Below are positions 8,667 to 52,927 of a stretch of 64,000 bases of DNA, piece after piece. Under the pieces are notes generated by a model that ran no database searches, was not told the origin of the DNA, and worked only from the letters and a program-made list of their open reading frames with translations. The position numbers and the translations under genes were made by a program. This stretch comes from an uncultured Prevotellaceae bacterium (GTDB lineage Bacteria > Bacteroidota > Bacteroidia > Bacteroidales > Bacteroidaceae), in NCBI GenBank assembly GCA_947167515.1, contig CAMVIM010000009.1, positions 8,522-72,521 of the forward strand. The letters run 5' to 3'. The stretch's first letter is position 1. Each line of letters opens with the position of its first letter.

Positions 8667-8784
8667 CGGGTGTTTCCATCTGTATTTGTTTGTCAATATT
8701 TAAGTACTTGTTAATCAGTACTTCGGTGCTTGTTTGTCAGTACCGTTGTACTCATTCGTCAATACTCCAGAACTCGTTTGCCAA

Positions 8785-8860: not shown

Positions 8861-8929
8861 CTTTTGAAGGCATACAAAAGTGAGTACAGGCGTCGGAAAA
8901 AGGAGGATATGCGTGAGGGATGTAGGTTG

Positions 8930-9761
8930 TTACGGCTTCTTCATGCGATGCTTCCTGAGTGTCGGCACTTCCTCGCAGAGGGCATCGGCCAGCAGACGAG
9001 CCACGACGGTGGCGCCATAGACGTTGTAGTGGGTGTTGTCCTGCCGCCCTTCGGGGAGGCTTGGCTCTTCACCGGGACGGAACCACATGTGGAGCCGTTT
9101 GGAGCCTTCGCGCCCCAAGCCCTGCTCCAACTGGTGTGTGATGCGGTTGGCATCGACGAAGGGGACGTGCATCCGTTCGGCCACCTGTCGGGGAGCCACC
9201 CCGGTAGAGGCCGTGGGTGTCGATGAGGCTGTCCCCTTCCACCATCTTCACGCCGTCCTTGAAGGTCGTCTCGCGGAGCAACTCGTCATCGTCATTTTCG
9301 GGTGCCTTGACGAAGAAGTTGCGGCGCACCACGCTGTTCATCAGGATGGGGATGCCGCCCCGCTGGCGTGTCTCGCGCACGAACCGCTCCAGGTTGGCAT
9401 CGAACGTGCTGCCCGGTTCCGTGTGGCGGTCGGGCTTGGGCTTCTCGTCGTTGTGGCCGAACTGAATCACCACATAGTCGCTGGGCTGCATCAGTTCCAG
9501 CACCCGTGCCCATCGGCCCTCGTTGATGAAAGAGAGCGATGAACGTCCGTTCACTGCGTGATTATCTACTCGGATGCCGTCGTCGAAACACGCTTGGAGC
9601 ATCATGCCCCAACCCCGTTCTTGCTTGCCGTTTGTGGTGTCTTTGTTGGCCATCGTCGAGTCGCCAATCAGAAAGATGGTCACCGCTCGGCGTGGTGTGA
9701 AGGCCGTGAGGAGGCACCACGCGGCGATGCACAACATCAGCATGTTCGTTGTCCGTTTCAT
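8930..9761 (-). pseudogene. SGNH/GDSL hydrolase (rhamnogalacturonan acetylesterase-like), split by a frameshift near 9197-9203
   Basis: ORF 9069-9761 carries block I (GDSTMA), block II (NHAVNGRS) and block III (GHND). The block V DxxH motif (DNTHY) lies in ORF 8930-9199 in another frame. The frames switch at the run accccgg (9197-9203). Confidence 0.75.
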
Positions 9762-10876: not shown

Positions 10877-11092
10877 ATGAGAACGGAGCATTTGGATTTC
10901 ATCACCTTCTGTGTTGGCAGCCTGTCGGACGCGCTTCATAAGAGTGCATCGCAAGTGTATGGTGCCCTGCGCTCGTCGGGAGTGCTGAACGACTATATTG
11001 TGCCATGTTACGACGTGCTGCACACGTTCAGCAAGGACTATCTCGTGGAGGAACTGACGGAGGTGCTAAAGGAAAGGGGGGCTCTGGCATGA
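10877..11092 (+). CDS. Small DUF3791-like protein (copy 1)
   Basis: 71 aa. It shares a C-terminal pattern [LM]H-x2-S-x-[DE]-Y-L-x-[DE]-E-L with the 72-aa ORF at 11566. Its stop overlaps the next start (ATGA at 11089-11092). Confidence 0.6.
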   Translation: MRTEHLDFITFCVGSLSDALHKSASQVYGALRSSGVLNDYIVPCYDVLHTFSKDYLVEELTEVLKERGALA

Positions 11093-11562
11093 GACTATAT
11101 CACGCATCGACATTGGTCATCGAAAAGCCTGACGTGCTTCATTCGCGCGACAAACTTGACTTCGGTAGAGGATTCTATCTGACCGCTATTCCTGAACAGG
11201 CGGTGCGCTATGCCGAACGTTTTACTCGCAGGGGCAAAGAGGCTTTTATTAACGAGTACGAACTTGACGAGGAAACACCAGACTTTAACATCAAGTCTTT
11301 CCCAAGTTACGACGAGGAATGGCTTGACTATGTGGCAGTTTGCAGGAAGGGAGGGGAACCGCAGTCGTCTTATGATGCCGTGTCTGGTGGTGTGGCCAAC
11401 GACAAGGTGTTCAATACCGTTGACCTGTATTTTGCTGGTGTCATTTCCAAGGATGAGGCGTTGGGGCGTTTGAAATACGAGAAGCCCAATCATCAGTTGT
11501 GTATTCTCAACGGTCAGATGCTTGACCGCCATCTTCATTTCATCAAGGCTGAAAGGGTTTAG
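11089..11562 (+). CDS. DUF3990-like protein (possible ADP-ribosyltransferase-fold toxin)
   Basis: I prefer the internal start MRLYHAS at 11089. Motifs seen: YHAS, FGRGFYLT and a late NHQLCIL. From memory, the size (157 aa) and FGxGFY motif match the DUF3990 family. Confidence 0.65.
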   Translation: MRLYHASTLVIEKPDVLHSRDKLDFGRGFYLTAIPEQAVRYAERFTRRGKEAFINEYELDEETPDFNIKSFPSYDEEWLDYVAVCRKGGEPQSSYDAVSGGVANDKVFNTVDLYFAGVISKDEALGRLKYEKPNHQLCILNGQMLDRHLHFIKAERV

Positions 11563-11565
11563 ACG

Positions 11566-11784
11566 ATGGAAGCGAACAAGACGATACTTCAAATGAAATA
11601 TGCAAGGATTGTGGCAATCTTTGCGCAGGAGTCTGGGCTCTCGCTGGAAGATGCCCTTTCGTTCTTCTATGATTCCGACACGTATCAACTCATCAGTGAA
11701 GGGGTTGCAGACATGCACTGCCGCAGTGACGAGTATCTGGCAGACGAACTGATGCTGGAGTACAACGAAAAGGATGCCAGATAA
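11566..11784 (+). CDS. Small DUF3791-like protein (copy 2)
   Basis: 72 aa. It starts 3 nt after the previous stop and is paralogous to the 10877 ORF (MHCRSDEYLADEL vs LHTFSKDYLVEEL). Confidence 0.6.
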   Translation: MEANKTILQMKYARIVAIFAQESGLSLEDALSFFYDSDTYQLISEGVADMHCRSDEYLADELMLEYNEKDAR

Positions 11785-11832
11785 GTCCCTTTTTCACATC
11801 CCACAAATCTTAACTATATTACAATTATACCT

Positions 11833-12327
11833 ATGGAAGTCATACAAAGTTTCACGATTGATCATACCTGCCTGAAACCAGGCATCTATGTGTCGCGCAT
11901 AGATAGGGGCTTCACCACGTTCGACCTGCGCATCACCGAACCCAACAAGGAGCCGGCTGTGGCTCCTGCTGCCATGCACAGTCTGGAGCATCTCATGGCC
12001 ACATGGTTTCGCAACAGCGAGGCGAAGGACGATGTGGTGTATGTGGGGCCGATGGGGTGTCTCACGGGCATGTATGTCATCATGACAGGTGCATACACCG
12101 TGGAGGACATGCGTCGTCTCACCATCGAGTGTCTGGAGTGGATTCTCACGCAGACGGCTGTGCCAGCCACGGAACCTGCGACTTGCGGCAACTATCTGCT
12201 CCATGACTTGCCCATGTGCAAGTGGGAGAGCCGCCGCTATCTCGACCGCTTACAGCACGATTTCCACAGCGAGTACACTCAGTTGCGTGTCACTCTCGAA
12301 GACGGCAAGACATTTGCCGACGCATAG
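11833..12327 (+). CDS. luxS: S-ribosylhomocysteine lyase
   Basis: 164 aa with the metal-binding HSLEH motif and GCLTG, and the typical N-terminus SFTIDHT.L.PG.Y. Confidence 0.95.
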   Translation: MEVIQSFTIDHTCLKPGIYVSRIDRGFTTFDLRITEPNKEPAVAPAAMHSLEHLMATWFRNSEAKDDVVYVGPMGCLTGMYVIMTGAYTVEDMRRLTIECLEWILTQTAVPATEPATCGNYLLHDLPMCKWESRRYLDRLQHDFHSEYTQLRVTLEDGKTFADA

Positions 12328-12354
12328 GGCATCCATCCCAAATAGAGTTGAAAC

Positions 12355-13740
12355 ATGATTGATTCGAGCATATTGCAAGGCAAGAAAGCGGCGTACTTCA
12401 CGCTGGGCTGCAAACTGAACTTCGCGGAAACAAGCACCGTGGCGCAGCAGTTGGCGCGTTATGGGGTGACGAAGGCGCAGAAAGGTGAGGTGGCTGACAT
12501 CGTGGTGGTGAACACGTGCAGCGTGACCGAGGTGGCTGACCACAAATGTCGGCAGGCGATTCATCGGTTGGTGAAGCAACACCCTGGGGCTTTCGTCGTC
12601 GTCACTGGCTGCTATGCGCAGTTGAAGCCACAGGAAATCGTGGAAACGGAAGGGGTGGACCTCGTGCTGGGGAGTGAGCAGAAGGGGAACATCATACCGA
12701 TGATTATGGAGACCCTCTCCCTAACCCTCCCCCGTAATGGGGAGGGAACCCATCCGGTGAGTTCCTCAACGGCAAAGAACCCGAAAGGCCTCCCTCCCCA
12801 TTATGGGGGAGGGTCGGGAAGAGGGTCTTTTTCCCCTGCTTGTTCCCGTGGCGACCGCACTCGCTATTTCCTGAAGGTGCAGGACGGCTGCAACTACTAC
12901 TGCACCTATTGCACCATCCCGATTGCCCGTGGACGAAGCCGCAACGGGAGCATTGCCTCGCTGGTGGAGCAAGCCGAAGAGGTGGCCCGCGAGGGGGGCA
13001 AGGAGATTGTCATCACGGGTGTGAACATCGGTGACTTCGGACGCTCCACGGGAGAGACCTTCTTCGACCTCGTGAAGGCACTCGATGGGGTGGAGGGCAT
13101 TGAACGCTACCGCATCTCGAGCATCGAGCCGAACCTGCTGACCGATGAAATCATCGAGTACTGTGTGCAGTCGAGGGCTTTCATGCCGCATTTCCACATC
13201 CCCTTGCAGAGTGGTTGCGATGAGGTGTTGAGGCTTATGCACCGCAAGTACGACACAGCCCTTTTCGCCCATAAGATAGAGAAGATACGCTCCGTGATGC
13301 CCGATGCTTTCATCGGTGTGGATGTCATCGTAGGCACTCGTGGCGAGACACAGGAGTATTTTGAGAAAGCCTATGACTTCATGCAGCGTGTCGATGTATC
13401 CCAGTATCACGTCTTCTCCTACTCCGAACGGGCTGGCACCAAAGCCTTGGAAATCCCTCATGTGGTCACGCCGCAGGAAAAGCACCAGCGCAGTCAGCGT
13501 GTCCTCGCTCTTTCGGCGCAGAAGACTCACGACTTCTACAGCCGGTTCATCGGCACCACGCGGTCTGTGCTGCTCGAACATGCCTCGCCTCGCAAGCCTC
13601 TGATGAACGGCTTTACCGACAACTACATCCGTGTGGAAGTGCCCAACCAACCTCACCTCGACAACCAGATTGTGCCAGTGCGATTGGATGGATTTAACGA
13701 AGCAGGGGATGCCTTGTGTGGGGAAATGATTAACAAATGA
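12355..13740 (+). CDS. mtaB: tRNA t6A37 methylthiotransferase (radical SAM MTTase)
   Basis: N-terminal MTTase domain (TLGCKLNFAETS, VVNTCSVT), radical-SAM CNYYCTYC and a C-terminal TRAM-like end. An extra palindromic element lies in the inter-domain linker. Confidence 0.9.
   Translation: MIDSSILQGKKAAYFTLGCKLNFAETSTVAQQLARYGVTKAQKGEVADIVVVNTCSVTEVADHKCRQAIHRLVKQHPGAFVVVTGCYAQLKPQEIVETEGVDLVLGSEQKGNIIPMIMETLSLTLPRNGEGTHPVSSSTAKNPKGLPPHYGGGSGRGSFSPACSRGDRTRYFLKVQDGCNYYCTYCTIPIARGRSRNGSIASLVEQAEEVAREGGKEIVITGVNIGDFGRSTGETFFDLVKALDGVEGIERYRISSIEPNLLTDEIIEYCVQSRAFMPHFHIPLQSGCDEVLRLMHRKYDTALFAHKIEKIRSVMPDAFIGVDVIVGTRGETQEYFEKAYDFMQRVDVSQYHVFSYSERAGTKALEIPHVVTPQEKHQRSQRVLALSAQKTHDFYSRFIGTTRSVLLEHASPRKPLMNGFTDNYIRVEVPNQPHLDNQIVPVRLDGFNEAGDALCGEMINK
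12710..12828. repeat. 119-bp palindromic (MITE/REP-like) element translated in-frame within mtaB
   Basis: The 38-nt arms 12710-12747 and 12791-12828 are reverse complements at 34/38 positions. Each arm also holds its own ccctcccc/ggggaggg hairpin. The element encodes ETLSLTLPRNGEGTHPVSSSTAKNPKGLPPHYGGGSGRGS. Confidence 0.8.
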
Positions 13741-42344: not shown

Positions 42345-44687
42345 ATGGCTGATTATTTTGATATAGCATCGCAAGAAGATGTGTTTTCCTCCTATGCCGC
42401 AGAGAATGGAATGCAGGAGCACAACCGCGAAATGAACTTGGCGTGGCAGTTTGTGACAGGCACGAACGTGTCGGTCTTTCTGACGGGTAAGGCAGGAACG
42501 GGGAAGACAACGTTTCTGCGGACACTGAGGGAACGGACGCCCAAACGGATGGTGGTGCTGGCTCCTACGGGGGTGGCTGCCATCAATGCACAGGGACAAA
42601 CCATCCACTCGTTCTTCCAGTTGCCCTTTGGCCCCATCGTGCCGGGCATGACACAGGGAGAGCGCAAGAGCCACTTCAAGATGAGCAAGGAGAAGAAGAA
42701 TCTCATCAAGACGTTGGACCTGCTGGTGATTGACGAAATCTCGATGGTCAGATGCGACGTGCTCGATGCGGTGGATCAGGAACTGCGAAAATATCGTGAC
42801 CGCAGCAAGCCGTTTGGAGGTGTGCAGCTGCTGCTCATTGGCGACTTGCAGCAGTTGGCTCCTGTGGCTCAAGAACGGGAATGGTCGCTGCTTTCCCCAT
42901 ACTATTCAACTCCCTATTTCTTTGGCAGCAAGGCCTTGCAGCAGATTCAGTATGTGACGATTGAACTGATGCACATCTACCGTCAGCAGGATGCGGCCTT
43001 CATCGGTCTTTTGGCGAAAATTCGCAATAATCAGGTGGACACGCCTACGATGAATGCCCTCAATGCAAGGTTTGTGCCTGATTTCATGCCACCGAAGAAT
43101 GAGGATTGGATTCGTCTGACCACACATAATCGCATGGCTCAAGCCTACAATGAAACTCAACTTGATGCCTTGAAGACGAGGGAGGTGGCCTTCATGGCAG
43201 AGATTCACAAGAACTTCCCTGAAAGCAGCTATCCTGCCGAAGAACGCCTCGTGCTGAAAGAGGGTGCGCAGGTGATGTTCATCAAGAATGACCCCAATCC
43301 TGGCAAGGAATACTACAACGGAAAGATTGGTACGGTGAAGGGATTTGTGTGGAACGATGACAGCGACGAACGGCTGATTGTCGTGCATTGCAAGGAGGAT
43401 GACCGCATGATTTATGTGCCTCAGCTGACATGGGAAAACACCAAGTATGTGATTGACGAGGAAACAAAGGAGATTCGTGAGGAGGTGGAAGGCACCTTCA
43501 GACAATATCCTTTGCGACTCGCATGGGCCATCACGGTACACAAGAGCCAAGGCCTGACGTTCGACCATGCTGTGCTCGACATCACCGACTCCTTCACGCA
43601 TGGGCAGGTGTATGTGGCACTGAGCCGTTGCCGCACCCTCGAAGGCATGGTGCTGGCGCGTCCGTTGATGGCAGGGTCGGTCATCACCGATGCCTCGGTG
43701 AACGCCTATATTGACCGCGAACTGGCGGAGGCGCAGCAGACGGAGGGTAAATTGCCGCAGATGAAGTATGACTATTTCATGACGTTGCTCAACGAACTTT
43801 TCGATTTCCAGACGTTGAGGCATGACACACAGTATCTCTACAGGGTGGTGAACGAGCACCTTTATTCCTCCTATCCCGACTATCTTTCGACCCTTCAGCA
43901 GGTGCTTCCCGAAGTGGATGCCCAAGTGATGGCTGTTGCCGTGAAGTTCCGTCAGCAGTATGTGCTGCTCATGCAGCAGAGCGGTGCTTCCTTTGCCCGC
44001 AATGAGCATCTGCAAGAACGGCTGAAGGCAGCCATGGGTTATTTTGACGATAAGCTTCATGAACTTTTCGACCCCGTGGTGGCTGCCTCGAAAGTGAACA
44101 TCAACAACAAGCAGGTGGTCACTCAATACAACAATGCCCTTGATGCTTTCATGCTCTCGCTGAAACTGAAAATCGGTGTGTTCAGCCGTCTGCAACCCAC
44201 AGGCTTCAATGTACGGGACTTTCTCAATGCCAAGGCAAAAGCGGTGCTGGATGAAGTGAAGACCCTCTCCCCATCCCTCTCTCATCATGGGGAGGAATAC
44301 CGTCCGGATGGCTCTCCCCGTAGAGGGGATGATGTCCGCAGGACAGAGAAAGTCTCTAAGAACAGGACCGAGAGAGCCTCTAAGAAGGAGAAGGTGGATA
44401 CCAAACGCGAGACCCTCAAACTCTTTCTCGACGGCAAGCCCATCAAGGAAATTGCAGCTCAACGTTCCCTCACCGTTGGCACCATCGAGAACCACCTCGC
44501 TCATTTTGTGGAACTGGGCGAACTGAAAGTGGACGATGTGGTGAGTACGCCCCATCAGAAAATCATCCGTGGCATCGTCAAGTCCTTCAGCAAAGCCTAT
44601 TCACTCTCCGAGGTGAAAAACCTCCTCCCCAGCGACTACACCTATGCGGAAATCAAACTGGTGATTGCGGACATGAACAAAAAGTGA
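42345..44687 (+). CDS. PIF1/RecD-like superfamily-1 helicase with a C-terminal HTH domain
   Basis: Walker A (LTGKAGTGKTT), DEISMV, GDLQQLAPV and TVHKSQGLTFD, with a C-terminal helicase-HTH-like region (TVGTIENHLAHFVELGEL). Confidence 0.85.
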   Translation: MADYFDIASQEDVFSSYAAENGMQEHNREMNLAWQFVTGTNVSVFLTGKAGTGKTTFLRTLRERTPKRMVVLAPTGVAAINAQGQTIHSFFQLPFGPIVPGMTQGERKSHFKMSKEKKNLIKTLDLLVIDEISMVRCDVLDAVDQELRKYRDRSKPFGGVQLLLIGDLQQLAPVAQEREWSLLSPYYSTPYFFGSKALQQIQYVTIELMHIYRQQDAAFIGLLAKIRNNQVDTPTMNALNARFVPDFMPPKNEDWIRLTTHNRMAQAYNETQLDALKTREVAFMAEIHKNFPESSYPAEERLVLKEGAQVMFIKNDPNPGKEYYNGKIGTVKGFVWNDDSDERLIVVHCKEDDRMIYVPQLTWENTKYVIDEETKEIREEVEGTFRQYPLRLAWAITVHKSQGLTFDHAVLDITDSFTHGQVYVALSRCRTLEGMVLARPLMAGSVITDASVNAYIDRELAEAQQTEGKLPQMKYDYFMTLLNELFDFQTLRHDTQYLYRVVNEHLYSSYPDYLSTLQQVLPEVDAQVMAVAVKFRQQYVLLMQQSGASFARNEHLQERLKAAMGYFDDKLHELFDPVVAASKVNINNKQVVTQYNNALDAFMLSLKLKIGVFSRLQPTGFNVRDFLNAKAKAVLDEVKTLSPSLSHHGEEYRPDGSPRRGDDVRRTEKVSKNRTERASKKEKVDTKRETLKLFLDGKPIKEIAAQRSLTVGTIENHLAHFVELGELKVDDVVSTPHQKIIRGIVKSFSKAYSLSEVKNLLPSDYTYAEIKLVIADMNKK
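44260..44333. repeat. Degenerate second copy of the mtaB palindromic element, in-frame inside the helicase linker
   Basis: agaccctctccccatccctctctcatcatggggaggaataccgtccgg resembles the left arm plus centre of the 12710 element (agaccctctccctaaccctcccccgtaatggggagggaacccatccgg). Confidence 0.45.
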
Positions 44688-44744
44688 ATCCTCTTTTCTG
44701 CCATTTTTGAATCCTCAACGCTTGGAAAAGTCCTCCTTTTTCCC

Positions 44745-44752
44745 TACCTTTG
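44745..44752 (+). promoter_or_regulatory. Orphan -7 promoter box (TAccTTTG) with no protein gene downstream
   Basis: tacctttg lies 58 nt after the helicase stop. The next ~900 nt contain no convincing ORF. Confidence 0.4.
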
Positions 44753-44856
44753 CATACGGGAAGAGAATTGTTTTTGTGCTCTCGGTGTTAAAACTCCCTT
44801 TCTTTCTGTAAAGATGCACCTTTTAGCCGAAAGCACCCCTTCTTTTCTTAAATTCA

Positions 44857-44940
44857 TTCTATGAATTATATAATCCATTCTTAGAATTGTGTAATCCATA
44901 CTATGAATTATATAATCCATACTATGAATCTAAAGTGGAA
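44857..44940 (+). repeat. 4 x 21-bp tandem repeat
   Basis: The units are ttctatgaattatataatcca, ttcttagaattgtgtaatcca, tactatgaattatataatcca and tactatgaatctaaagtggaa. Confidence 0.8.
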
Positions 44941-45110
44941 ACGACGCTGAGTAAGAAGAGGTTGTTGCACTGAGGCAAAAGAGAATACGGCACAAGGGCA
45001 ATGGTGGATATTCCACATTAGCGATGGTGTATATTCCATAGAGGTGATGGTGAACACCTCACACAAAAATCATAGAGAACACAGAAAAGATGGAGTGGCT
45101 TTTTCGATTG

Positions 45111-45146
45111 CCTAAATTCCGCGCGGAATTTGGGCTTTTCTCTTTT
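45111..45146 (+). terminator. Terminator-like hairpin plus T-rich tail
   Basis: cctaaattccgc/gcggaatttggg forms a 12-bp stem. The one G-U pair forms only in a plus-strand transcript. The hairpin is followed by cttttctctttt. Confidence 0.5.
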
Positions 45147-45181
45147 AACTCAAAAAAACGTGAGCAATCTACTTCGCTTAC

Positions 45182-45302
45182 GTTGTTCGAGGTATTGGGG
45201 ATAACCTTGGTGGCTTAAACGAGTAAATGCCCACGCCGAGCGGCGTGAACTATCTACTTCAGTCCTTGCTACTGTTGTCTAATTCCCCAATTATCGAACA
45301 AC
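45182..45302 (+). other. ~120-nt element with long-range closing stems (candidate structured RNA or MITE remnant)
   Basis: gttgttcga (45182-45190) pairs with tcgaacaac (45294-45302), and attgggga (45194-45201) with tccccaat (45284-45291). An internal hairpin is cacgcc-gagc-ggcgtg (45232-45247). Confidence 0.4.
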
Positions 45303-45343
45303 AAGAATCAAAAGTGGATATTCAGTCCTCCTTATCTTATTTT
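45288..45343 (+). repeat. Island-flanking direct repeat, left copy
   Basis: caattatcgaacaacaagaatcaaaagtggatattcagtcctccttatcttatttt aligns with 50791-50847. The exact 19-bp core aacaagaatcaaaagtgga is at 45300-45318. Confidence 0.8.
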
Positions 45344-45410
45344 AACGTGAGTTCGATGTAAGGGCTTCCGTAGATGGGGAATTTGTGCGGTTCCACATAT
45401 ACCACGAACG

Positions 45411-45552
45411 CACACCCGTATCCACCGCCATCGCACACCTGCATCCTCCACCATCGTACACCCGTATCCACCGCCATCTCACACCCGTATCAACCTCGCC
45501 CTGTCACCCGTATCAACCTCAGGCTGTCACCCGTATCAACCTCGTACCGTCA
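45411..45552 (+). repeat. Iteron-like array of ~6 x 23-bp tandem repeats
   Basis: cacccgtatc[ca]acc recurs at about 45414, 45460, 45483, 45506 and 45529, with spacing of 46 then 23, 23, 23 nt. A degenerate unit fills the 46-nt gap. Confidence 0.8.
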
Positions 45553-45681
45553 CTCTTCATCACCGTCAATGAAACGACTGACAGGAGTGTGAGATGATGC
45601 CTGCGAGATGGACGAAGACATGAGTGGGCAAAGGGAGTGGATGCGGCTCTCTGTTGTTTCTTATACCGAATTCGCGTAGTT

Positions 45682-46332
45682 TTAGCACTTTTTTATATTT
45701 TCACGATGGTTCTTCAATGTCTTGTAGAAATCTACCACCTCTCGCATTGAGGCGATATACATTTTTAGTCGCCTACCATTGAGCGGTGTCCGCTTGCCAT
45801 CCATCCAACTCAGTTCTTGGAACTCCCGGCAGAATGTCTCGTAGTCAATCTTCCCTTGCTGATACCATAGCAACGCGTCGGCATAGACAGAGTAATACAA
45901 ATTGCAGAACGGCTTGAAGAAGATGAAGTGCTCATCGTCTGCATACACCTTCTTGCAAAACTCCTCCACCACGTTTGGCACGAAATACTCATCAGCATAT
46001 TCATCCACAAGTTGCCTGAACTCCTTGTAGGTGTCAATGCATTCATTCACGCTTTCCTCCTTGGTTTGCAAGAAGTCTGACGGCGATGAATGAATGATAG
46101 TCATCTGATTCATCATTGCTGCCATCCGTTCTGCCTGCTGATAGGAAGTCTTCTCTTCACTCATGAATAACTCTCTATGAAGCATCGCCAAGTGATATTT
46201 ACCGTAAGTTTGTGTCAACTTACAGGCCAGCGTCACATCAAGCGCACGACGTTGATAGCGTTCTGGCAACCCTTGTTGTAGTTTTATGTGACTGAGTGTT
46301 TTCTCAGAGAAATAGTTGTTTGGTGATTTCAT
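45682..46332 (-). CDS. Hypothetical protein (island gene 5)
   Basis: 216 aa, helical and aromatic/acidic-rich. No motif recognised. It lies 70 nt downstream of the nuclease gene on the same strand. Confidence 0.6.
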   Translation of the reverse strand: MKSPNNYFSEKTLSHIKLQQGLPERYQRRALDVTLACKLTQTYGKYHLAMLHRELFMSEEKTSYQQAERMAAMMNQMTIIHSSPSDFLQTKEESVNECIDTYKEFRQLVDEYADEYFVPNVVEEFCKKVYADDEHFIFFKPFCNLYYSVYADALLWYQQGKIDYETFCREFQELSWMDGKRTPLNGRRLKMYIASMREVVDFYKTLKNHRENIKKC

Positions 46333-46402
46333 TTCACAACTGTATTTCTAACTGTTGCCTTTTGAAAAATTGGTTATGCATGTTGTTAATTGCTTGAAAC
46401 AA

Positions 46403-48370
46403 TTATTTGTGGCATTTTGGACATTTATGTCCCTTTGTTCTTTTATTTATGGAAACTTCCCATTCATATCCGCAATGATGACATATCCAATTTGCACGAT
46501 AACTTGAACCTGCAGAATAGTCATTGGGTGTACCCTCGTTTTTCGAATAATCCCAGTCCTTTATCAAATGAGGGTGGGTATCTGCGAAAGCCCCCTTTAA
46601 TTCTACGATTCTTTTACGTTGAGAAAGAATTCTTTGTTTATCTGCACATTGGTTGCAACCCCGACCCTTTGCTCTTGCATCCATTGTTGCCTGCCAGGAA
46701 TGGCCACAAGTTCTGCATATCCACCATACTTTTTTACCACAATGTGGGGGAAGCGTTTGGGGGTCTAACCCTCTATTTCTAACATAATCCCATTCTTTCA
46801 ACAAATGTGGATAATTATCTGCGAATGATCCCTTAAATGCTATGATTCTTTTGTGTTTGGAAAGAGTTCTTTGCTTATCTGCACATTTGGGACATCCTTC
46901 CCCCTTATTACGATGACCAACTCCAACTGCCCAATGGTGACCACAAGTCTTACATACCCACCATACTCTCTTACCGTTATTGACTGTAATCTTATCAGGT
47001 GTAAGGTCTCCATTTCTATCATAATCCCATTCTTTTACAAGTTCTGGATTTTGAGATAGCAAGTCATTCTCTCCAGGGGATAAAATAATCCCTGCACAAT
47101 ATGGGCAGCCATGCCCCTTAAGGCGAGTGTTAACTTGTGCCTTCCACGAATGTCCTTTTTCACATTTCCAGTAAAATTTCTTTGTACTTGTACAAAGTAT
47201 ATATTCTGGTTTAATGTCGCCATTCTTTTCATAATCCCACTGTTTAGCCACTTCGGGGATTCGGGCTACTATACTGTTTTCTTTCTCTGATTGTATATAA
47301 AGTGCATATATTTGATTCCTATCTCTTTCAATATCAATGTCTAATTGATCAATGTACTCTTCTTTACCACATAACTTAAGTATTTCGTTTATAGCCCATT
47401 TTAGATAAGTGTGGTCACCTTGATATTTTACATAAATAATACCATTAGACACTTTGTCGTAATCACCTTCTTTTATCCTTATCAGTCTTATACCATTATC
47501 TGCTAAAAGCTGGTTCTTCTTTTTTTCTCTATTTTGAGACTTTAAGGTTGAATGGTAATAGGCACCATCATATTCTATAGCAGTATTCCATTCTTTTTCG
47601 CCTAAAAAAATGTCTATTTCCTCCCCTTTGAATATATACCTATTTTGTGCTGTTGTCACTTTTCTAAGATAAAAATATATTGCTTGCTCTGGGAAAGAAG
47701 TTCCCCATTCTTTTTTACAATATGGGCAGCCTACATTTAGATTTGCACGAACACTAACGTATTGAGCCCAATGATGGCCTTTGTGACAAATCCAATTAAC
47801 GCGCTTATAAAGATGCGCAGTTACATTATATGGAGTCAATTCTCCATTTTTCTTATAATCCCATTCGTCTGCTAATTGAGGATGAGACTCAACAAGTGTT
47901 TTATTGCCAAATCTCTTTAATTGTTTATCTTTGTATGAGCATTTTTCACAGCTAAATATGGCTTTTGCATGCGAGACGACCATACTTTCCCACTCATAAC
48001 CACAAACATGACATTTCCAATAAACTCTAATGTTTGATCCGGCAGTAACTTGGGTAGGTAAAAGTTCACCATTTTTTTCGTAATCCCAATCTTTTGCTCT
48101 TTCTGGAAAAATGTCTGCAAAACTACCTTTCTTGTTTATTCTTTCAGTGTTCACATTCTTTAAACTGCAATTTGGACATCTGAAACCTTGAAGTCTCCTG
48201 CGACTAGGAGCAGCTTGCCAGCTATGTCCGCATACAGAACACTTCCACCATACTTTATGGGAACTTCCTGCAGTTAGGGTATTTGGATTATGATCTTTGT
48301 TTTTTTCATAATCCCATTCTTTTATATAGTCGTCATACTTGGCAATGGGTAAAAGTTTTGTGTATCTCAT
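46403..48370 (-). CDS. Multi-zinc-ribbon protein with a central PD-(D/E)xK (Vsr/DUF559-like) nuclease domain (island gene 4)
   Basis: Seven modules of the form [ED]WDY.[KR]N...(W|Y)W.C..(C)GH.W......R..G.GCP.C: three before and four after the segment EEIDIFL...NTAIEYDGAYYHS...GIRLIRIKE. Confidence 0.75.
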   Translation of the reverse strand: MRYTKLLPIAKYDDYIKEWDYEKNKDHNPNTLTAGSSHKVWWKCSVCGHSWQAAPSRRRLQGFRCPNCSLKNVNTERINKKGSFADIFPERAKDWDYEKNGELLPTQVTAGSNIRVYWKCHVCGYEWESMVVSHAKAIFSCEKCSYKDKQLKRFGNKTLVESHPQLADEWDYKKNGELTPYNVTAHLYKRVNWICHKGHHWAQYVSVRANLNVGCPYCKKEWGTSFPEQAIYFYLRKVTTAQNRYIFKGEEIDIFLGEKEWNTAIEYDGAYYHSTLKSQNREKKKNQLLADNGIRLIRIKEGDYDKVSNGIIYVKYQGDHTYLKWAINEILKLCGKEEYIDQLDIDIERDRNQIYALYIQSEKENSIVARIPEVAKQWDYEKNGDIKPEYILCTSTKKFYWKCEKGHSWKAQVNTRLKGHGCPYCAGIILSPGENDLLSQNPELVKEWDYDRNGDLTPDKITVNNGKRVWWVCKTCGHHWAVGVGHRNKGEGCPKCADKQRTLSKHKRIIAFKGSFADNYPHLLKEWDYVRNRGLDPQTLPPHCGKKVWWICRTCGHSWQATMDARAKGRGCNQCADKQRILSQRKRIVELKGAFADTHPHLIKDWDYSKNEGTPNDYSAGSSYRANWICHHCGYEWEVSINKRTKGHKCPKCHK

Positions 48371-48485
48371 ACTGTTCGTTTCTTTAAAATCTGATTGATA
48401 TTAGTTGTCGAGAGGCCTAAACACAACGTAAAATCCTTGTTGTTCCATATTATTCTATCTGATATTATACACATGTTCTAAGATT

Positions 48486-49394
48486 TCATTTCTCGCTGTC
48501 GCCACCATTCATTATCGAATCAATACGTTGTCTTTCTTCTTTAATACAACTTTGGCTTAATGTCCGAAACGCTTCTAAAATGTCAGTTAATGGTTTAATG
48601 AGTTGATGGGCTAATTCAGAGTACTGGTTAGAATCCATATTCTTTGAATCTATGCCCATTTCTGCTATTAGATGGTTCAGATTGTCTGAAGCCTCGTTGG
48701 ATATGGGAGTTTTGTTATAATAGAGACATGCAAGCATTTGTATGTCATTGACAACAGACATGTAGCAAGCGTAATTATCTGCTAGCTTCTTTTGGTATGT
48801 ATCACTTATCGTAGTCTTTCTGTTCTCACTGATTACAAGATTGAGAGTTGTATCAGCTTGCTTAAGGGTCTTATATACGGCTTTAATCTTTTGTTGAATA
48901 GATTCAAAAGATGACACCGGAATGGAATTGATGATTTCCCATATTTCGTTCTCCTGAAAGGCTGAGATGTATTTGGCAAGTGCCTCGCGTAAAACATTAA
49001 GCCATTGTATCTCTTGCTGATATAAGAATAAGTTTCTTTGGAGTTGTCGATTCTTTTGGTTCTCCAATCTATTGTTTTCAACTAATTTTGTATACCCGCT
49101 ATTTATATGCATCCGGTTTTTTCCATCATCTCTTTGCTTCTCAAACCTAAGTGAAGCCATTTCTTCTTTATGATTCTTTTGCTGAATAAATAAGATAATA
49201 AAGGCGGTCAATGAACTAATGGTTGCGCCGAGATAGCTCCCCCAGAACGACATCCAATCTTGTAATGTACCTACACTTAATTGGCTTGTTGGCATGAAAA
49301 CCAAAAAGTTCAATAGAATAGGCAATCCGATTATAAAAATTGCAATAACAATTATCCACCAATACTTTTTCATGTAGTTTTTCATTTCTTTCAT
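48486..49394 (-). CDS. Two-TM membrane protein with a ~210-aa helical cytoplasmic domain (island gene 3)
   Basis: TM1 is YWWIIVIAIFIIGLPILLNFLVF and TM2 is FWGSYLGATISSLTAFIILFI. The remainder is Q/N/K/E-rich and helical. Its start is 1 nt after the upstream gene's stop. Confidence 0.65.
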   Translation of the reverse strand: MKEMKNYMKKYWWIIVIAIFIIGLPILLNFLVFMPTSQLSVGTLQDWMSFWGSYLGATISSLTAFIILFIQQKNHKEEMASLRFEKQRDDGKNRMHINSGYTKLVENNRLENQKNRQLQRNLFLYQQEIQWLNVLREALAKYISAFQENEIWEIINSIPVSSFESIQQKIKAVYKTLKQADTTLNLVISENRKTTISDTYQKKLADNYACYMSVVNDIQMLACLYYNKTPISNEASDNLNHLIAEMGIDSKNMDSNQYSELAHQLIKPLTDILEAFRTLSQSCIKEERQRIDSIMNGGDSEK

Positions 49395-49395
49395 T

Positions 49396-50151
49396 TTATG
49401 CTTCTTTTCTATTTTTTGTTACTTTAAGCTGTTTGTCTGCACGGCTTTGAGCCTCTTTCGCTGCTTGTTTTGCAAGTACTGCTGTTTGTTCTGCCTTTTT
49501 ATGGGATGAACGCCCTTTGTTGGTACCTAATATCAAGTCCATTTTTTTACCCAACTCTGCAATGTCGCATCTTACCTCTTCTCTGAAAATAGCCTGTTCA
49601 CGCAACAAGGTTGCAATGTCATGAAGAATAGCAGCGTATTCAGATGATTGTGCAGTGATTTCCTTTTGTTCCTTTATATTAGCATTGGGGGAATTCGGGT
49701 CAACAATGAAATCAAAAACATTCAGGGTGAATGTGGTGCAGAATTTAAGTAAACGGACGACAGGAAGCCTATGAATTGCAAGGAGCGACTCTTTAACACG
49801 GTTTGGGTGTAAACCAACGAAAGGTGCAGCATCACGATACGAAGATATCATACCAGAACTTATTACTTTTTGGATTGCATCTCTATCATAGTAGCACTTT
49901 TTGTAACCACTATATACAATATAGTCCTTATGTTGAGAGACTATATTCTTGTCATCCATGGAGATGAAACGACTGACGGGAACCTGTAAACCATTGGCGA
50001 GGTCTAAAAGCTGTTGAACTGATATTTTTGATGGGGTCTGAACAATACGATACCATGTGGCAATAGCAATGTTTGACTGTTTAGAGATTGCCCCATGTGT
50101 CATAAATAAAACACGAGGTAACTCTTTCAATAATTTTTCATTCAGTTGCAT
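49396..50151 (-). CDS. Tandem-HTH DNA-binding protein with a basic coiled-coil tail (island gene 2)
   Basis: I prefer the ATG at 50151 (MQLNEKLL); the ORF-track start at 50175 is the TTG of the promoter box. Two HTH-like segments are ISVQQLLDLANGLQVPVSRFI and PVVRLLKFCTTFTLNVFDFI. Confidence 0.6.
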   Translation of the reverse strand: MQLNEKLLKELPRVLFMTHGAISKQSNIAIATWYRIVQTPSKISVQQLLDLANGLQVPVSRFISMDDKNIVSQHKDYIVYSGYKKCYYDRDAIQKVISSGMISSYRDAAPFVGLHPNRVKESLLAIHRLPVVRLLKFCTTFTLNVFDFIVDPNSPNANIKEQKEITAQSSEYAAILHDIATLLREQAIFREEVRCDIAELGKKMDLILGTNKGRSSHKKAEQTAVLAKQAAKEAQSRADKQLKVTKNRKEA

Positions 50152-50172
50152 AAGTTTATAGATTTGTGAGTG

Positions 50173-50180
50173 CAAAGGTA
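50173..50180 (-). promoter_or_regulatory. -7 promoter box (TAccTTTG on the minus strand) for the four-gene island operon
   Basis: caaaggta on the plus strand, about 22 nt upstream of the ATG at 50151. Confidence 0.5.
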
Positions 50181-50308
50181 ATTATAAACTATCATATCAA
50201 CAAGAAAATTCTCAAAAAAGTTTGTTTTAACAATCATTTTTGTAGTTAAACTAAACTATATTACCTTGTTTTTGATAGTTCTTGTAATTTTTCCGTAATT
50301 CTACAGAT

Positions 50309-50346
50309 GAAAAAGAAACCCACGTTGCAGTGTTGCAGCGTGGGTA
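50309..50346 (-). terminator. Rho-independent terminator after island gene 1
   Basis: On the minus strand, acccacg-ctgcaacactgcaa-cgtgggt is followed by ttctttttc. Confidence 0.6.
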
Positions 50347-50396
50347 ATAGTCAACAGCGATTGTTGATGGCGGATTCCGCCTCAGTGGGACATTAT

Positions 50397-50750
50397 TCAC
50401 CAGACAATTCCCAACTTGTTCAATGCCTTCTTGGTGCGAAGTAATGTCTCGTAGCCAACGCCTTCCAAGTCCAACAGTTCGCCTGGGGTAAGCGACAAAA
50501 ATTCTTCCAGTGTTTTGATATTCCGTCTCTGGAGAGCAGTCTTTAATCGATATGCCAAAGATTTCTTTTTCCCGAACTCCTTGTACAAATCTTCTAACGT
50601 ATGTCCAACCTTGAAGTCAGATTCCAAAGGTAAAGGAAATCCGACAGGAGCCACCTGTTCACTATCATTCAGAGAAAGGTACTCCCGAATCTCCTTCACC
50701 TCTCTCTCAACACTCTCTAATTTGTCAATAAGTTCCTTTCTAGTCATCAT
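50397..50750 (-). CDS. Small protein with an RNA polymerase alpha-CTD-like helix-hairpin-helix domain (island gene 1)
   Basis: 117 aa. The C-terminus IKTLEEFLSLTPGELLDLEGVGYETLLRTKKALNKLG resembles the RpoA CTD / HhH motif. Confidence 0.55.
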   Translation of the reverse strand: MMTRKELIDKLESVEREVKEIREYLSLNDSEQVAPVGFPLPLESDFKVGHTLEDLYKEFGKKKSLAYRLKTALQRRNIKTLEEFLSLTPGELLDLEGVGYETLLRTKKALNKLGIVW

Positions 50751-50790
50751 AAAATCATATAAGCATTGTTATGGCTTTCCGTAAAACTGT

Positions 50791-50847
50791 CAATTGTCGG
50801 AAAACAAGAATCAAAAGTGGACGTCCAGTCTTATGTCTTATTATTTT
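50791..50847 (+). repeat. Island-flanking direct repeat, right copy
   Basis: caattgtcggaaaacaagaatcaaaagtggacgtccagtcttatgtcttattatttt. The exact 19-bp core is at 50803-50821. Confidence 0.8.
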
Positions 50848-50910
50848 TTATCTATCCATTGGATTATCTGTTTAATGATTACATATTGATATATATTACT
50901 TTCGATTCTT

Positions 50911-51181
50911 TCAGAATAAGTCGGAATGGGTTCCAGTTCCTGTGAACAAGAGTGTCTGTTCTGTATCGTTCTGCTCCCAAATCAAGAGCCAATCAGGTTT
51001 AAGGTGACATTCCCAGCATTCGCCATATTGTCCCGAAAGTTTGTGAGGGTGGTAATTCATAGGAAGTTGACCGTCGGCTTCAGCAAACGGATGGCGGTTT
51101 TGAGTAGTTCCATGTCATATCCGCGCTTACGACATCGTTCCGTGTCTTTGCGGAACGTCTTGGTCATTCTGATTTCGTACA
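50911..51181 (-). pseudogene. yafQ: YafQ/RelE-family toxin gene inactivated by a -1 frameshift
   Basis: My translation gives MYEIRMTKTFRKDTERCRKRGYDMELLKTAIRLL and reaches a stop at 51057-51059. The family continuation EADGQLPMNYHPHKLSGQYGECWECHLKPDWLLIWEQNDTEQTLLFTGTGTHSDLF lies in another frame. The switch is at the A-run 51086-51088. Confidence 0.75.
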
Positions 51182-51188
51182 TGGGTGC

Positions 51189-51392
51189 TCAGATTCCTAA
51201 TGACTTGAACATTTCCTCAGATGAAGAGAATTTCTCCACGCGACCAGCCTGTTTGTCTTCTTGAGAACGTAAGTAACTGCTCTTAGCCTTTGGTGTAACC
51301 TTGGATACGAGCACACCCAATGCCTCCAGATAGGCCATGAGGGCCTTACCGGTGGAAGTTCGCTCGTTCAATGTAATTGTATAAGTTGCCAT
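51189..51392 (-). CDS. Putative antitoxin partner of the decayed YafQ toxin
   Basis: 67 aa, ending 7 nt upstream of the toxin start. No fold assigned; the call rests on position only. Confidence 0.5.
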   Translation of the reverse strand: MATYTITLNERTSTGKALMAYLEALGVLVSKVTPKAKSSYLRSQEDKQAGRVEKFSSSEEMFKSLGI

Positions 51393-51583
51393 TGGTCTTG
51401 AATACGATTGTTACGATTACTATTTTTCCTTTGAATCTACATTTTAAGTAGAATCCGTTGCAAAAATACTAAAAAGAAGTCAAAATGAAGTGTGAATTGC
51501 AGAAAAACTTTATCGTAGAGGCAAAAATAGTAGCATTTTGTACTCTTTTTATAAGGGTAAGGCGGAAAGCACTCTCTCCAAAA

Positions 51584-51625
51584 GCATACCCCTCGACTAC
51601 GAGATGCCGTAGTCGAGGGGTATGC
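51584..51625 (-). terminator. Rho-independent terminator (18-bp perfect stem) after the GH105 gene
   Basis: gcatacccctcgactacg (51584-51601) pairs with cgtagtcgaggggtatgc (51608-51625). On the minus strand the hairpin is followed by ttttgg. Confidence 0.7.
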
Positions 51626-51649: not shown

Positions 51650-52927
51650 TCATTTCACATAGAAGATAGGTTCATCGGTCTGTGGGTCTTCGGGGTAGAA
51701 GTGGGTGGCTGAGTCGTTGAGTTTGATGTGGTGGGTTTTCACGAGTTGGTAAATCTCTGCACCTGCCCAAAGGGTGGGGCCGTAGCCGTGGGCTGCGAAG
51801 TTGTTGACGGGACGGTAGGCGTAGAAGGCGGGGTCGAAGGCAAGGCCTGTGCCCACGCAGGTGCCCTCCACCTGACCTTGTGTGTTCACGTGCGCATTGA
51901 CGTAGTTCCATGCAAGGAGGGCTTGTGCGCCATAAGTTTCGGCATCGAGCCACCCCTTGTTGATGGCGTGGGCGATGCAGTAGCAGTAGATGGCGGTGCA
52001 GGACGTTTCGAGGTAGGTGTCGGGACGGTCGAGCAACTGATGCCAAGCTCCGTCGTGGTGCTGCAAGGGGAGCAGGCCGTCGAGGTGTTCCTTGAAGTAG
52101 CTGAGGATGAGTGCCGACTCCTTCACGTCTAAGAGTTCGCAAGCGGTCAAGAGTGCCCAACCGTTGGCGCGTCCCCAGAAGAACGAGGGGTGATGCTCTC
52201 CTGGCACCCATCCGTGGCGGTACAGGTGCTTCTCTGCCACCCACATCTTGTCGTGGAAGAGTTGGAACTGGCGTTGTGCCTTCTCCACCTCGTCGTGCCA
52301 AGCCAAAGCAGGGATACCCATGAACATGTCGTCGAGCCATACGGTGTTCTTCACGGGGCGCAGACGGGCAAAGGTGCCGTCTTTGTAACGATATTGCTTG
52401 TTGGCGATGAAGTCGTAGTAAGTGTCAATCCTGTCTTTCAACTTGGCATCCTTTGCTTTCAGCATGGCCGCACAAATGGCTCCGGCATCGTCGAGGGCTT
52501 CGGGCTTCACCACTTGGTGCATCAGCGGGTCAATTTCCTCACCTCGGTCGAGTCGTGCCTTAAAGTCGGGTGCAAGCTTTGCCAAGTATTCCATGCGGTC
52601 GATGGCGTAGCGGGTGTAGGAAGCGTCGCCTGTCACCTCACCAGCACGCAGCATGGCTGAGTAGGTGACACCCCACTCGTAGGAGGTGAGTCGGAAGGTG
52701 CCGCGTCGGAGCATCTTGCCCGTCTCGTCCAGCTGCATGAAGGTGGTGGCATCGAGGTAGTTCTTCACTCTGTCCATGGTGGCTTTCACGTCCTCTGCCT
52801 TAGGCACTCCGTAGGGAATCTTGTAGGCAGGTTTCATCAGGTGGAGCGGGGCGGTGGCATCGTTCTGCACTTCTTGGGCATAGCCGAGAATCGGCATGAG
52901 GGTGAGTAGGAAAAGAAATTTCTTCAT
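51650..52927 (-). CDS. GH88/GH105-family unsaturated (rhamno)galacturonyl/glucuronyl hydrolase
   Basis: 425 aa with a signal peptide. (alpha/alpha)6-type motifs: YEWGVTY, WLDDMFMG, FWGRANGW. Confidence 0.75.
   Translation of the reverse strand: MKKFLFLLTLMPILGYAQEVQNDATAPLHLMKPAYKIPYGVPKAEDVKATMDRVKNYLDATTFMQLDETGKMLRRGTFRLTSYEWGVTYSAMLRAGEVTGDASYTRYAIDRMEYLAKLAPDFKARLDRGEEIDPLMHQVVKPEALDDAGAICAAMLKAKDAKLKDRIDTYYDFIANKQYRYKDGTFARLRPVKNTVWLDDMFMGIPALAWHDEVEKAQRQFQLFHDKMWVAEKHLYRHGWVPGEHHPSFFWGRANGWALLTACELLDVKESALILSYFKEHLDGLLPLQHHDGAWHQLLDRPDTYLETSCTAIYCYCIAHAINKGWLDAETYGAQALLAWNYVNAHVNTQGQVEGTCVGTGLAFDPAFYAYRPVNNFAAHGYGPTLWAGAEIYQLVKTHHIKLNDSATHFYPEDPQTDEPIFYVK

Follow-up and report, generated by a model that had tools for sequence, protein, structure and literature searches.

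The 64-kb window analysed here (the whole stretch of DNA, from an uncultured Prevotellaceae bacterium) contains, between a Pif1-like helicase gene and a GH88 gene, a group of five AT-rich minus-strand genes (g1 to g5) bracketed by two direct repeats. The repeats turned out to be two non-identical copies of a conserved element of ~220 nt, named EL, and EL is a more novel result than the gene block it accompanies. Taken as a whole, the reading that we consider probable is that the interval is a variable island of EL-headed units, that EL serves as a leader acting in cis, and that the genes include a candidate anti-mobile-DNA module. The window was compared with 124 fetched loci (L numbers below), mostly contigs of metagenome-assembled genomes (MAGs).

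A helicase-based scan of metagenomes identified three relatives. One of them, L114, is empty: its helicase (76% identical) and GH88 (86% identical) genes lie ~105 bp apart, and the gap holds the GH88 terminator hairpin alone, with neither EL nor island. Because this empty site retains only the 51584-51625 hairpin between the helicase and GH88, the true island in the window extends from ~44690 to ~51583, i.e., from the helicase stop to the GH88 terminator hairpin. Judged against L114, acquired DNA reaches ~600 bp and ~740 bp past the two repeats. The other two relatives, L115 and L116, and the genome contig L046 carry a different cargo of ~6 kb at the helicase/GH88 site, composed of a HipA_2 kinase, a zeta-like ATPase, a 610-aa lipoprotein and a Gp49+HTH_3 fusion, with EL near the GH88 side and oriented as in the window. 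The comparison shows that the helicase-GH88 interval is an accessory island that varies between strains and is of a type often met in rumen Prevotellaceae. An earlier note on this DNA had proposed that the segment was horizontally acquired; the empty site and the other cargo bear this out, and the island lies in a defence-island setting. The same note had suggested looking in relatives for an empty site with a single copy of the repeat core: L114 is indeed empty, but it has no EL.

The low GC content of the segment was also seen correctly. It is 0.32-0.42 over 46000-51250, as compared to 0.49-0.60 in the helicase and GH88 flanks, and the part holding g5 and EL is intermediate (0.46-0.48). In agreement with the earlier note, a scan of open reading frames (ORFs) and Pfam domains revealed no integrase, transposase or recombinase domain in the island interval. 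There is no tRNA or tmRNA target in the 64-kb window, and no common 3' flank after g5 was found across the compared loci.

The imperfect direct repeats with an exact 19-bp core are real. The stretches 45288-45327 and 50791-50830 are 85% identical over 40 nt, and the exact 19-mer occurs only twice in 64 kb (0.02 occurrences expected; 0 of 100 shuffles with two or more matches). The earlier note took the repeats, at a length of ~56 bp, for the ends of the island; however, they lie well inside the borders at 44690 and 51583 and are the best-conserved portion of EL, which is multi-copy and present at more than 100 loci. A non-coding stretch of ~190 nt that includes the left repeat (45151-45343) is 81-89% identical in every compared locus that encodes a g3 homologue, while the proteins of these loci are only 40-75% identical. 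In the alignment, EL consists, on the gene strand, of an upstream part of ~55 nt, and an invariant block TCCACTTTTGATTCTTG within which lies cACTTTTG, a box resembling the Bacteroidetes -7 element. Behind the block come a long hairpin with imperfect pairing, whose closing stems are UUCCGA/UCGGA and GGGGAA/UUCCCC, then the terminator hairpin and finally a T-run. The exact 19-mer of the repeats is this invariant promoter block and is present in every copy examined. The complete left copy in the window (minus strand) is made up of the upstream part, designated X (45343-45319), the -7-like box CACTTTTG (45316-45309), a structured RNA of ~150 nt whose closing stem begins at ~45302 and, behind it, the terminator hairpin (45182-45159), with a T7 run at 45158-45152. 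Its fold has an energy of -59.2 kcal/mol (z = -5.3), and no co-oriented gene lies behind it.

Further EL copies were gathered from GTDB species representatives with an exact 24-mer from the hairpin. This yielded 92 stretches, nearly all from MAGs of rumen Prevotella or Prevotellaceae, with up to 3-4 per MAG. Two isolates are among the matches, X. ruminicola KHT3 (Xylanibacter ruminicola) and Prevotellaceae MN60; a few short contigs labelled Firmicutes or Lachnospiraceae are probably binning errors. The copy numbers, which come mostly from MAGs, are lower bounds because a multi-copy EL is expected to break short-read assemblies: the same-species contig L001, which carries the helicase, ends inside EL (L001 12797-12893).

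RNAalifold, applied to 94 distinct EL copies, gave 40 pairs in 7 helices, with 98.2% of the cells paired. Double-change cells in the pairs number 383 vs. 113 +/- 11 in shuffles. The covariation score is 0.289 vs. 0.111 in shuffled alignments, a value reached by 0 of 500 shuffles, and slid controls give 0.03-0.06. The covarying pairs are located in helices 1-4 and in the terminator, outside the 24-mer used for collecting. By its conserved G-U pairs, the fold is assigned to the strand of the downstream genes. The alignment shows EL as a promoter-like box followed by a rod-like RNA of ~150 nt with a conserved, covarying predicted fold and a putative intrinsic terminator. Rfam 15 gives no match at gathering score in the 64-kb window; at E<=10 in 44600-45700, the sole overlap with EL is a chance-level snoRNA (E 7.2). 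A full-text literature search with the EL core found no papers, and a keyword search of the literature for Prevotella non-coding RNA and leucine-rich repeats (LRR) returned nothing relevant.

EL also holds two direct 17-nt copies of GAAGTAGAT[AT]G[TC]TCACG, at 45248-45232 and 45175-45159 (minus strand) in the window. The first is the 5' strand of the long hairpin, and the second spans the terminator loop and its 3' stem. As read from the alignment, the second copy (GAAGTAGAT..YYCACG) could pair with CGUGGGCAUUUACUC, a partner that is invariant and so carries no covariation signal. The first copy could do the same, and this hints at an alternative fold or at paired sites for binding a protein. 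One MAG contig, L068, has two EL copies in direct orientation (2669-2835 and 4989-5172), 2.3 kb apart and separated by two minus-strand genes; in the first copy, the 5' part is replaced.

The genomic setting of EL is consistent with a role in the expression of the gene that follows. A same-strand ORF starts 100-260 nt past the 24-mer in ~89 of 96 EL copies, with the start codon of the co-oriented gene 20-50 nt past the EL terminator, and no conserved promoter is found in the AT-rich gap of ~45 nt between the terminator and the ATG, which also leaves too little space for a separate one. Forty-nine of the first genes fall into one cluster, whose member in L006 encodes an LRR_5 (BspA-like) protein, and the others encode mostly small proteins of lipoprotein or secreted type. 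A signal peptide is present in 59 of the 96 first-gene products (at least 60%), as determined by a crude test that undercounts. Because the distance to the ORF is short and fixed and no promoter intervenes, EL most likely acts in cis, as a promoter and structured 5' leader with a conditional terminator that requires read-through. Structured 5' leaders with intrinsic terminators are well known, among them riboswitches, attenuators and processive-antitermination leaders such as EAR. EL resembles these in having a promoter, a covarying fold between promoter and ORF, and a terminator hairpin with a U-run directly before the start codon. It differs from them in that it has no Rfam family and no assigned ligand or antiterminator, its downstream genes are functionally heterogeneous and some copies stand alone.

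Upstream of EL, toxin-antitoxin (TA) pairs are found on the same strand in about one third of the loci (MNT/HepT, YafQ, DUF4160/DUF2442 and a Gp49-HTH fusion), and defence pairs are also common just upstream. Large proteins encoded there belong to heterogeneous housekeeping or ATPase genes and are not recombinases. Every context with a g2 or g3 homologue has a same-strand EL upstream, including L003, L006, L009, L109 and L113, which were reached by protein-based look-ups made without EL. The same is true of L105, which was reached via g5 and holds g4 and g5.

The right EL copy in the window is of a different kind. It retains the whole of the upstream X part and the CACTTTTG box (50819-50812) but just ~20 nt from the start of the RNA, and it is 87.6% identical to L047 7500-7404. 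The order in L047 is EL, a 181-aa lipoprotein gene, and g1-g2-g3-g4. The match of the window to L047 extends across the EL promoter (50887-50791) and is taken up again 14 nt ahead of g1; what the window does not have relative to L047 is ~790 bp that comprise the RNA, the terminator and the gene for the lipoprotein. The right copy looks like the outcome of a ~790-bp deletion fusing the EL promoter to g1. Promoter-only copies also occur in L113 and L084, ahead of DUF4160/DUF2442 pairs that are followed by a full EL. The two copies in the window are of different lineages, the right one being L047-like and the variable stem of the left one being equal to that of L050. They are independent units and not an insertion duplication.

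Next to the right copy lies the YafQ pair that the earlier note described as decayed. With its toxin frame split by a frameshift and its antitoxin intact, it is a decayed member of the YafQ family of type II toxin-antitoxin pairs. The intact toxin homologue in L034 matches Pfam YafQ_toxin (E 4.4e-32), and the 67-aa antitoxin itself has no Pfam match. A further conserved stretch, designated U, is contiguous with the EL upstream part in L047, and the TA pair separates the two in the window and in L093. The pair is flanked by an imperfect repeat, AATAGTAATCGTAAC / AATATGTAATCATTAAAC, at 51410-51428 and 50872-50889 (minus strand); the flanks are contiguous in L047. This repeat may mark either a cassette insertion or a microhomology deletion. 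Across 59 loci, repeats of the EL upstream edge flanking upstream cassettes were not found above background (best match on average 11.08 of 14 vs. 10.81 for shuffled probes).

As for the genes, all five ORFs were confirmed on the minus strand with the sizes and spacing first reported, and the descriptions given from the letters alone proved accurate. The likeness of g1 to the C-terminal domain of RpoA (helix-hairpin-helix) is recovered as a weak RNA_pol_A_CTD match; its own terminator, a hairpin with a U-run, folds as claimed (50305-50400: -30.9 kcal/mol, z = -4.1). The matches of g1 in NCBIfam, a database uninformative for the island proteins in general, are weak, and homologues 75-90% identical are present in L009, L047, L093 and L105. 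The tandem helix-turn-helix (HTH) character of g2 is seen in two HTH units and in its family, of which 16 of 36 members match HTH_26 and 14 of 36 match HTH_3, the window g2 itself staying below the reporting threshold. The likely start of g2 is the ATG at 50151, as called in L002. The g2 family comprises 89 clusters and two architectures that have in common an N-terminal double HTH of ~150 aa; one architecture is ~346-380 aa long. The two transmembrane (TM) segments of g3 form a hairpin in the AlphaFold 2 (AF2) model, and its ATG lies 1 nt after the g2 stop, as stated; across loci, g2 and g3 are 1 nt apart or overlap. The g3 family is small (47 clusters), and its N-terminus weakly matches PHROGs 16113 and 30577.

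The seven zinc modules of g4 around a PD-(D/E)xK core were likewise recovered, as seven DUF4379 matches and an MTES_1575/DUF2726-type core. This Vsr/MTES_1575-type core spans residues ~223-308 (Pfam part 240-308) and matches MTES_1575 (9.8e-6) and DUF2726 (9.3e-4) below the Pfam cutoffs. Its match to PDB 3r3p over residues 223-308 is weak (E 1.7e-3). This structure is of I-Bth0305I, the Vsr-like prototype of the EDxHD homing-endonuclease family (PMC3239194). The whole protein matches PHROG 559 ('HNH endonuclease', 2.4e-52) and PHROG 681 (6.5e-40), and it aligns with the phage 'Hef-like homing endonuclease' genes of AR9 and PBS1 at 25-30% identity over 76-97% of the length. By these mutually consistent matches and its predicted Vsr-like core, g4 belongs to a homing-endonuclease-type family. 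The 216-aa g5 was said to be of no known family, and indeed it has no Pfam, PDB or PADLOC match beyond a chance-level Cas9 (0.0099). A profile search of 1.84 billion representatives yielded 219 g5 representatives at 50% clustering; ten divergent members among these carry no Pfam domain. When g2, g3 and g5 were searched against the PDB by sequence and by profile, nothing came out below E 0.06. PADLOC gives no system match for the five proteins, in keeping with the earlier note, which did not recognise the combination as a named system.

TAccTTTG is the Bacteroidetes -7 promoter consensus, and the box reported ahead of the four-gene operon is present at 50180-50173. The idea of the operon as one system has less support than was proposed, as its members recur apart. 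The co-occurrence proposed as a check on the block was found for g2-g3-g4. These genes stand together in four contexts (the window, L047, L036 and L109-112), in each case with EL upstream and candidate or known defence genes adjacent. In L009, g1-g2-g3 are followed by a 472-aa protein (10971-12389) with the catalytic motif EIDIW...IEYDGYYGHS as in g4 and with different repeats: about six copies of (M)MNCGMEAEVIEDNG..DI.V.F.DG flank the nuclease motif in place of the zinc modules. This protein has no Pfam match, and the repeat may be a new DNA-binding one. The series in L003 starts with an HTH/coiled-coil protein and g3, continues with DUF723 and two NUMOD4-HNH_3 genes, and closes with a 223-aa gene and g5. 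A further arrangement is seen in L113 (10001-15097), where a g2-like HTH gene, McrB, McrC and a g5 homologue (74% identical) follow each other; g2-like HTH proteins of 348 or 256 aa head McrBC in both L113 and L084. Between the HTH gene and McrB, L084 has a 359-aa protein that contains a DTGA motif of retropepsin-like type.

The neighbourhood of these genes is of the defence type. PADLOC assigns neighbours to HEC-01A (3e-130), HEC-01B (4e-76) and AbiLi (1e-58; AbiLi-like/PDC-M38), and others are Abi_2 and Type ISP fragments, a weak DUF4238 match, HicB, DpnII restriction-modification genes and many TA pairs. A keyword search of the literature for DUF4379 and defence found nothing relevant. The earlier note's idea of a defence-like module stands in so far as the block recurs in defence-type islands; a defence role of the island genes is plausible, though unproven.

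Islands of this kind are put together from units with a portable EL at the head. Of the two EL copies here, the right one is promoter-only and fused to g1, and the left one is complete with nothing left to drive. In the reading that we favour, the product of g2, with its tandem XRE HTH and coiled coil, would bind DNA and act in control or sensing, and that of g3, translationally coupled to g2, would anchor the complex at the inner membrane by its TM hairpin. The g4 protein would bind DNA by its seven zinc modules and cut it with the Vsr-like PD-(D/E)xK core. The g1 and g5 genes would be accessory, g5 being a conserved island-terminal gene that is also found behind McrBC. That g2-g3 and the nuclease g4 act as an anti-mobile-DNA module is a tentative proposal, quite credible but short of probable. 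It is made because g2 and g3 are coupled, because g3 repeatedly adjoins a nuclease, and because the operons of g2-like genes, McrBC and g5 offer a parallel.

Several observations weigh against this reading. The closest annotated relatives of g4 are phage homing endonucleases, and since g4 falls into a homing-endonuclease-type family, it may well be selfish instead of serving defence. The genes of the block need not occur together: g3 in L006 follows the LRR gene and has no nuclease neighbour, g4-g5 stand behind an unrelated 298-aa protein in L105 and an unrelated 341-aa protein in L121, and g5 occurs after McrBC in L113 and alone in L117 (beside HEC-01-type genes) and L124. Between loci, g4 is conserved at 84-95% vs. 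47% for g2, which fits an independently moving gene. In PADLOC-DB v2, g1, g2 and g3 have no matches, and g4 matches only HEase (9.4e-6) and PDC-S37 (1.9e-3). Foldseek searches with g3 against PDB and BFVD returned generic helical bundles only, none with E<1e-3, and the AF2 model of g5 is unreliable (predicted local distance difference test, pLDDT, 52). With regard to EL, the invariance of helices 5 and 6 is partly a matter of ascertainment, as the exact 24-mer lies in them, and the ORFs and clusters around EL come from a simple script of our own and BLAST clusters. The main rival explanation holds that g4 and its counterparts are free-standing selfish homing-endonuclease genes that home next to g5, and that the five genes have no joint function and form a mosaic of g1; g2-g3; g4; and g5. 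The matches of g4 to PHROG 559, to the I-Bth0305I core and to the Hef-like genes of AR9 and PBS1 agree with this, as does its better conservation than that of neighbouring genes. The slot between g3 and g5 in L003 is filled by DUF723 and NUMOD4-HNH_3 genes, which are classic phage homing-endonuclease architectures, and g5 lies directly behind DUF4379/DUF723 proteins in L105, L106, L108 and L121 and without them in L117 and L124, two loci that resemble alleles lacking the nuclease. However, the adjacency of g3 and a nuclease is retained over four nuclease types or contexts, and g5 also stands behind McrBC, which is not a homing gene. There is no intron or intein at g4, Rfam finding none, and no two alleles were found that differ in the presence of g4 but are flanked by the same DNA. 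Homing-endonuclease genes are typical of phage genomes, whereas the g4 loci are chromosomal islands rich in defence genes. We regard this explanation as possible but doubtful.

The other alternatives concern EL and the origin of the island. EL could be a family of independently transcribed, trans-acting small RNAs (sRNAs) or a DNA-level site, serving mainly as a homology patch for the recombination that shuffles accessory genes. The full EL has no co-oriented gene behind it in the window, L115 and L046; it has its own terminator with a T7 run, it is multi-copy, with the L001 contig ending inside it, and its two 17-nt direct repeats are potential binding sites. This alternative seems rather unlikely to us in view of the fixed short distance at which ~89 of 96 copies precede a same-strand start codon and the absence of a conserved promoter in the ~45-nt gap; moreover, the compensatory changes, like the G-U pairs, speak for folding of an RNA (or a single strand) with the sense of the genes. 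The model of the earlier note, in which a five-gene cassette was integrated as a unit by site-specific recombination with the ~56-bp repeats as att-type ends, would account for AT-rich genes bracketed by two direct repeats with an exact 19-bp core, and a single crossover between an incoming and a resident EL would yield the layout of the window. Yet the repeats are 85% identical rather than identical, the 19-bp core is found in every EL copy examined, and the two repeat copies belong to different EL lineages. The empty site puts the borders ~600 bp and ~740 bp beyond the repeats, the right copy is explained by the deletion relative to L047, and the search for repeats around upstream cassettes was negative. 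A site-specific integrative island was rejected on the same grounds: no recombinase domain is present and the borders at ~44690 and ~51583 are not at the repeats. We consider this model very unlikely and for the most part refuted. An origin of the block as the relic of a prophage or a phage satellite is extremely unlikely. It is true that g3 and g4 match PHROG families, that a primase-like gene lies downstream of the g3 homologue in L006, and that one EL copy is on an IMG/VR contig. However, the island in the window has no structural, packaging, lysis or integrase genes; the sole IMG/VR contig has no virion genes but integrases together with one radical-SAM and one LRR gene, and it is 1 match in 2.9 million viral contigs vs. 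92 in genomes.

Defence islands and variable hot spots between conserved core genes are an established concept. The site in the window is like them in being occupied, empty or filled with alternative cargo between the same two core genes, and islands of its type have low GC, TA modules, restriction-type nucleases and candidate PADLOC systems. It is unlike them in having no integrase or tRNA target and in that its units are headed by a conserved structured-RNA element; we know of no such headers in described hot spots. With EDxHD and Hef-like homing endonucleases g4 shares a Vsr-like core flanked by extra DNA-binding modules and phage relatives. It departs from them in its chromosomal location, the absence of an intron or intein and its seven DUF4379 modules; the 3r3p match is weak and homing is putative. 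Zorya and Kiwa are defence systems that combine a membrane component with a nuclease, and by analogy g3 is a membrane-anchored helical protein encoded beside the nuclease g4 and the DNA-binding g2. Unlike in those systems, no sequence or fold match to ZorA/B or KwaA/B is found by PADLOC or by Foldseek with g3, g3 has only a TM hairpin, and its link to g4 is not obligate. The likeness to McrBC, a modification-dependent restriction system, is positional: in L084 and L113, McrBC sits behind g2-like genes where the window has g3-g4, and g5 follows in L113, whereas the window has neither McrB nor McrC. The island also recalls an integron platform, as the EL promoter heads co-oriented variable genes, TA pairs are interleaved and the repeated element has a folded hairpin; it differs in having no integron integrase, no dense arrays and no repeats flanking cassettes. 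EL was considered as an attC site and rejected: GTT stands at the 5' end of EL and AAC at the 3' end, the opposite order to attC, and the upstream proteins are not recombinases.

Rumen Prevotella are dominant and poorly tractable gut bacteria, and the regulation and exchange of their genes for surface proteins and defence are little understood. EL is a covarying RNA of ~150 nt that is absent from Rfam and heads ~100 sampled accessory loci, where it is associated with LRR proteins of the BspA-like type as well as with TA pairs and restriction-type modules. If the link between EL and islands holds, EL should be a helpful handle for finding variable islands in metagenomes. The g2-g3-nuclease block and the frame of g2 and g5 around McrBC are candidates for new defence components; alternatively, they may represent a rare case of homing-endonuclease genes colonising chromosomal islands. 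A bolder version, which we judge to be speculative and improbable, is that EL is a new portable RNA header that controls surface-protein and defence genes and, being multi-copy, also supplies the homology for shuffling TA pairs, LRR surface-protein genes and nuclease modules between rumen Prevotella genomes. EL would then be an integrase-free functional analogue of the integron platform, and g2-g3 would form, together with a swappable nuclease, a new membrane-coupled system against phages or plasmids.

Table 1. Features of the helicase-GH88 interval and its flanks (positions in the 64-kb window).
Feature	Position	Strand	Basis or remark
Pif1-like helicase	42345-44687	+	left core-gene flank, convergent with GH88
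ORF-less helicase-proximal island end	44688-45150	+	sequence reading; absent from empty site L114
Complete EL, left copy (5' part is the left repeat of the earlier note)	45152-45343	-	nhmmer E 5.7e-52
23-bp tandem array, ~6 copies, iteron-like, between g5 and full EL	45402-45553	.	tandem-repeat scan
g5, 216 aa, all-helical, usually last island gene before core genes	45682-46332	-	539 homologues, top 120 at least 73% identical
g4, 655 aa, three + four DUF4379 treble-clef zinc modules around predicted nuclease core	46403-48370	-	DUF4379 E 8.6e-126
g3, 302 aa, N-terminal TM hairpin, long helix, cytoplasmic four-helix bundle	48486-49394	-	AF2 pLDDT 83
g2, 251 aa, tandem XRE/Cro-C1-type HTH and C-terminal coiled coil	49396-50151	-	alignment; ORF extends to 50175
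TAccTTTG -7-type box	50173-50180	-	read from sequence; 22 nt before g2 ATG
g1 intrinsic terminator, hairpin then UUCUUUUUC	50309-50345	-	fold of 50305-50400 (energy in text)
g1, 117 aa, C-terminal RpoA-alphaCTD-like helix-hairpin-helix	50397-50750	-	Pfam RNA_pol_A_CTD E 1.7e-3, below cutoff
Promoter-only EL copy (core is the right repeat of the earlier note)	50791-50887	-	alignment; EL homology stops at 50791
YafQ-family toxin pseudogene, frameshift near 51080-51087	50914-51182	-	tblastn in two frames, 77-81% identical to L034 toxin
Intact 67-aa antitoxin	51189-51392	-	72% identical to protein just upstream of L034 YafQ toxin
U region with TAttTTTG box 51468-51461	51415-51499	-	blastn 80-85% to L047 and L093
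Perfect 18-bp inverted repeat, GH88 terminator hairpin, core-genome border	51584-51625	.	conserved in L114 and L115
GH88 gene	51650-52927	-	right core-gene flank

Some minor features of the loci may be added. The 341-aa protein of L121, which directly precedes the g4 homologue and g5 (5838-9696), begins with VYLLGAGASRG, a motif that by eye we take to be SIR2-like; the protein has no PADLOC match. The 298-aa protein of L105 was considered as a divergent g3 and rejected (BLASTP E 0.022).

The helicase-proximal end of the island holds, on the plus strand, a perfect TAccTTTG box (44746-44753), a 21-bp tandem repeat (44851-44929), and a strong terminator-like hairpin found by terminator scan (45110-45135), followed by a T-rich tail. 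Repeated mini-ORF-like ATGGTG(G/T)ATATTCCA motifs are present at 44999-45036 on the same strand, and there is no long ORF in 44746-45145. The plus-strand unit 44746-45145 may represent either an sRNA or a gene in decay. At the position equivalent to 44746-44753, L115 has a TAccTTTG box ahead of its HipA_2 kinase gene. On the other side of the left EL copy, the 23-bp array was found, among the 124 fetched loci, only in the same-species contig L002. Relative to the window, L002 carries 1017 bp extra (L002 5567-6583), inserted at 45677/45678 just after the g5 stop; the insert has an ORF of 238 aa with no Pfam match and represents a strain-level indel within the island.

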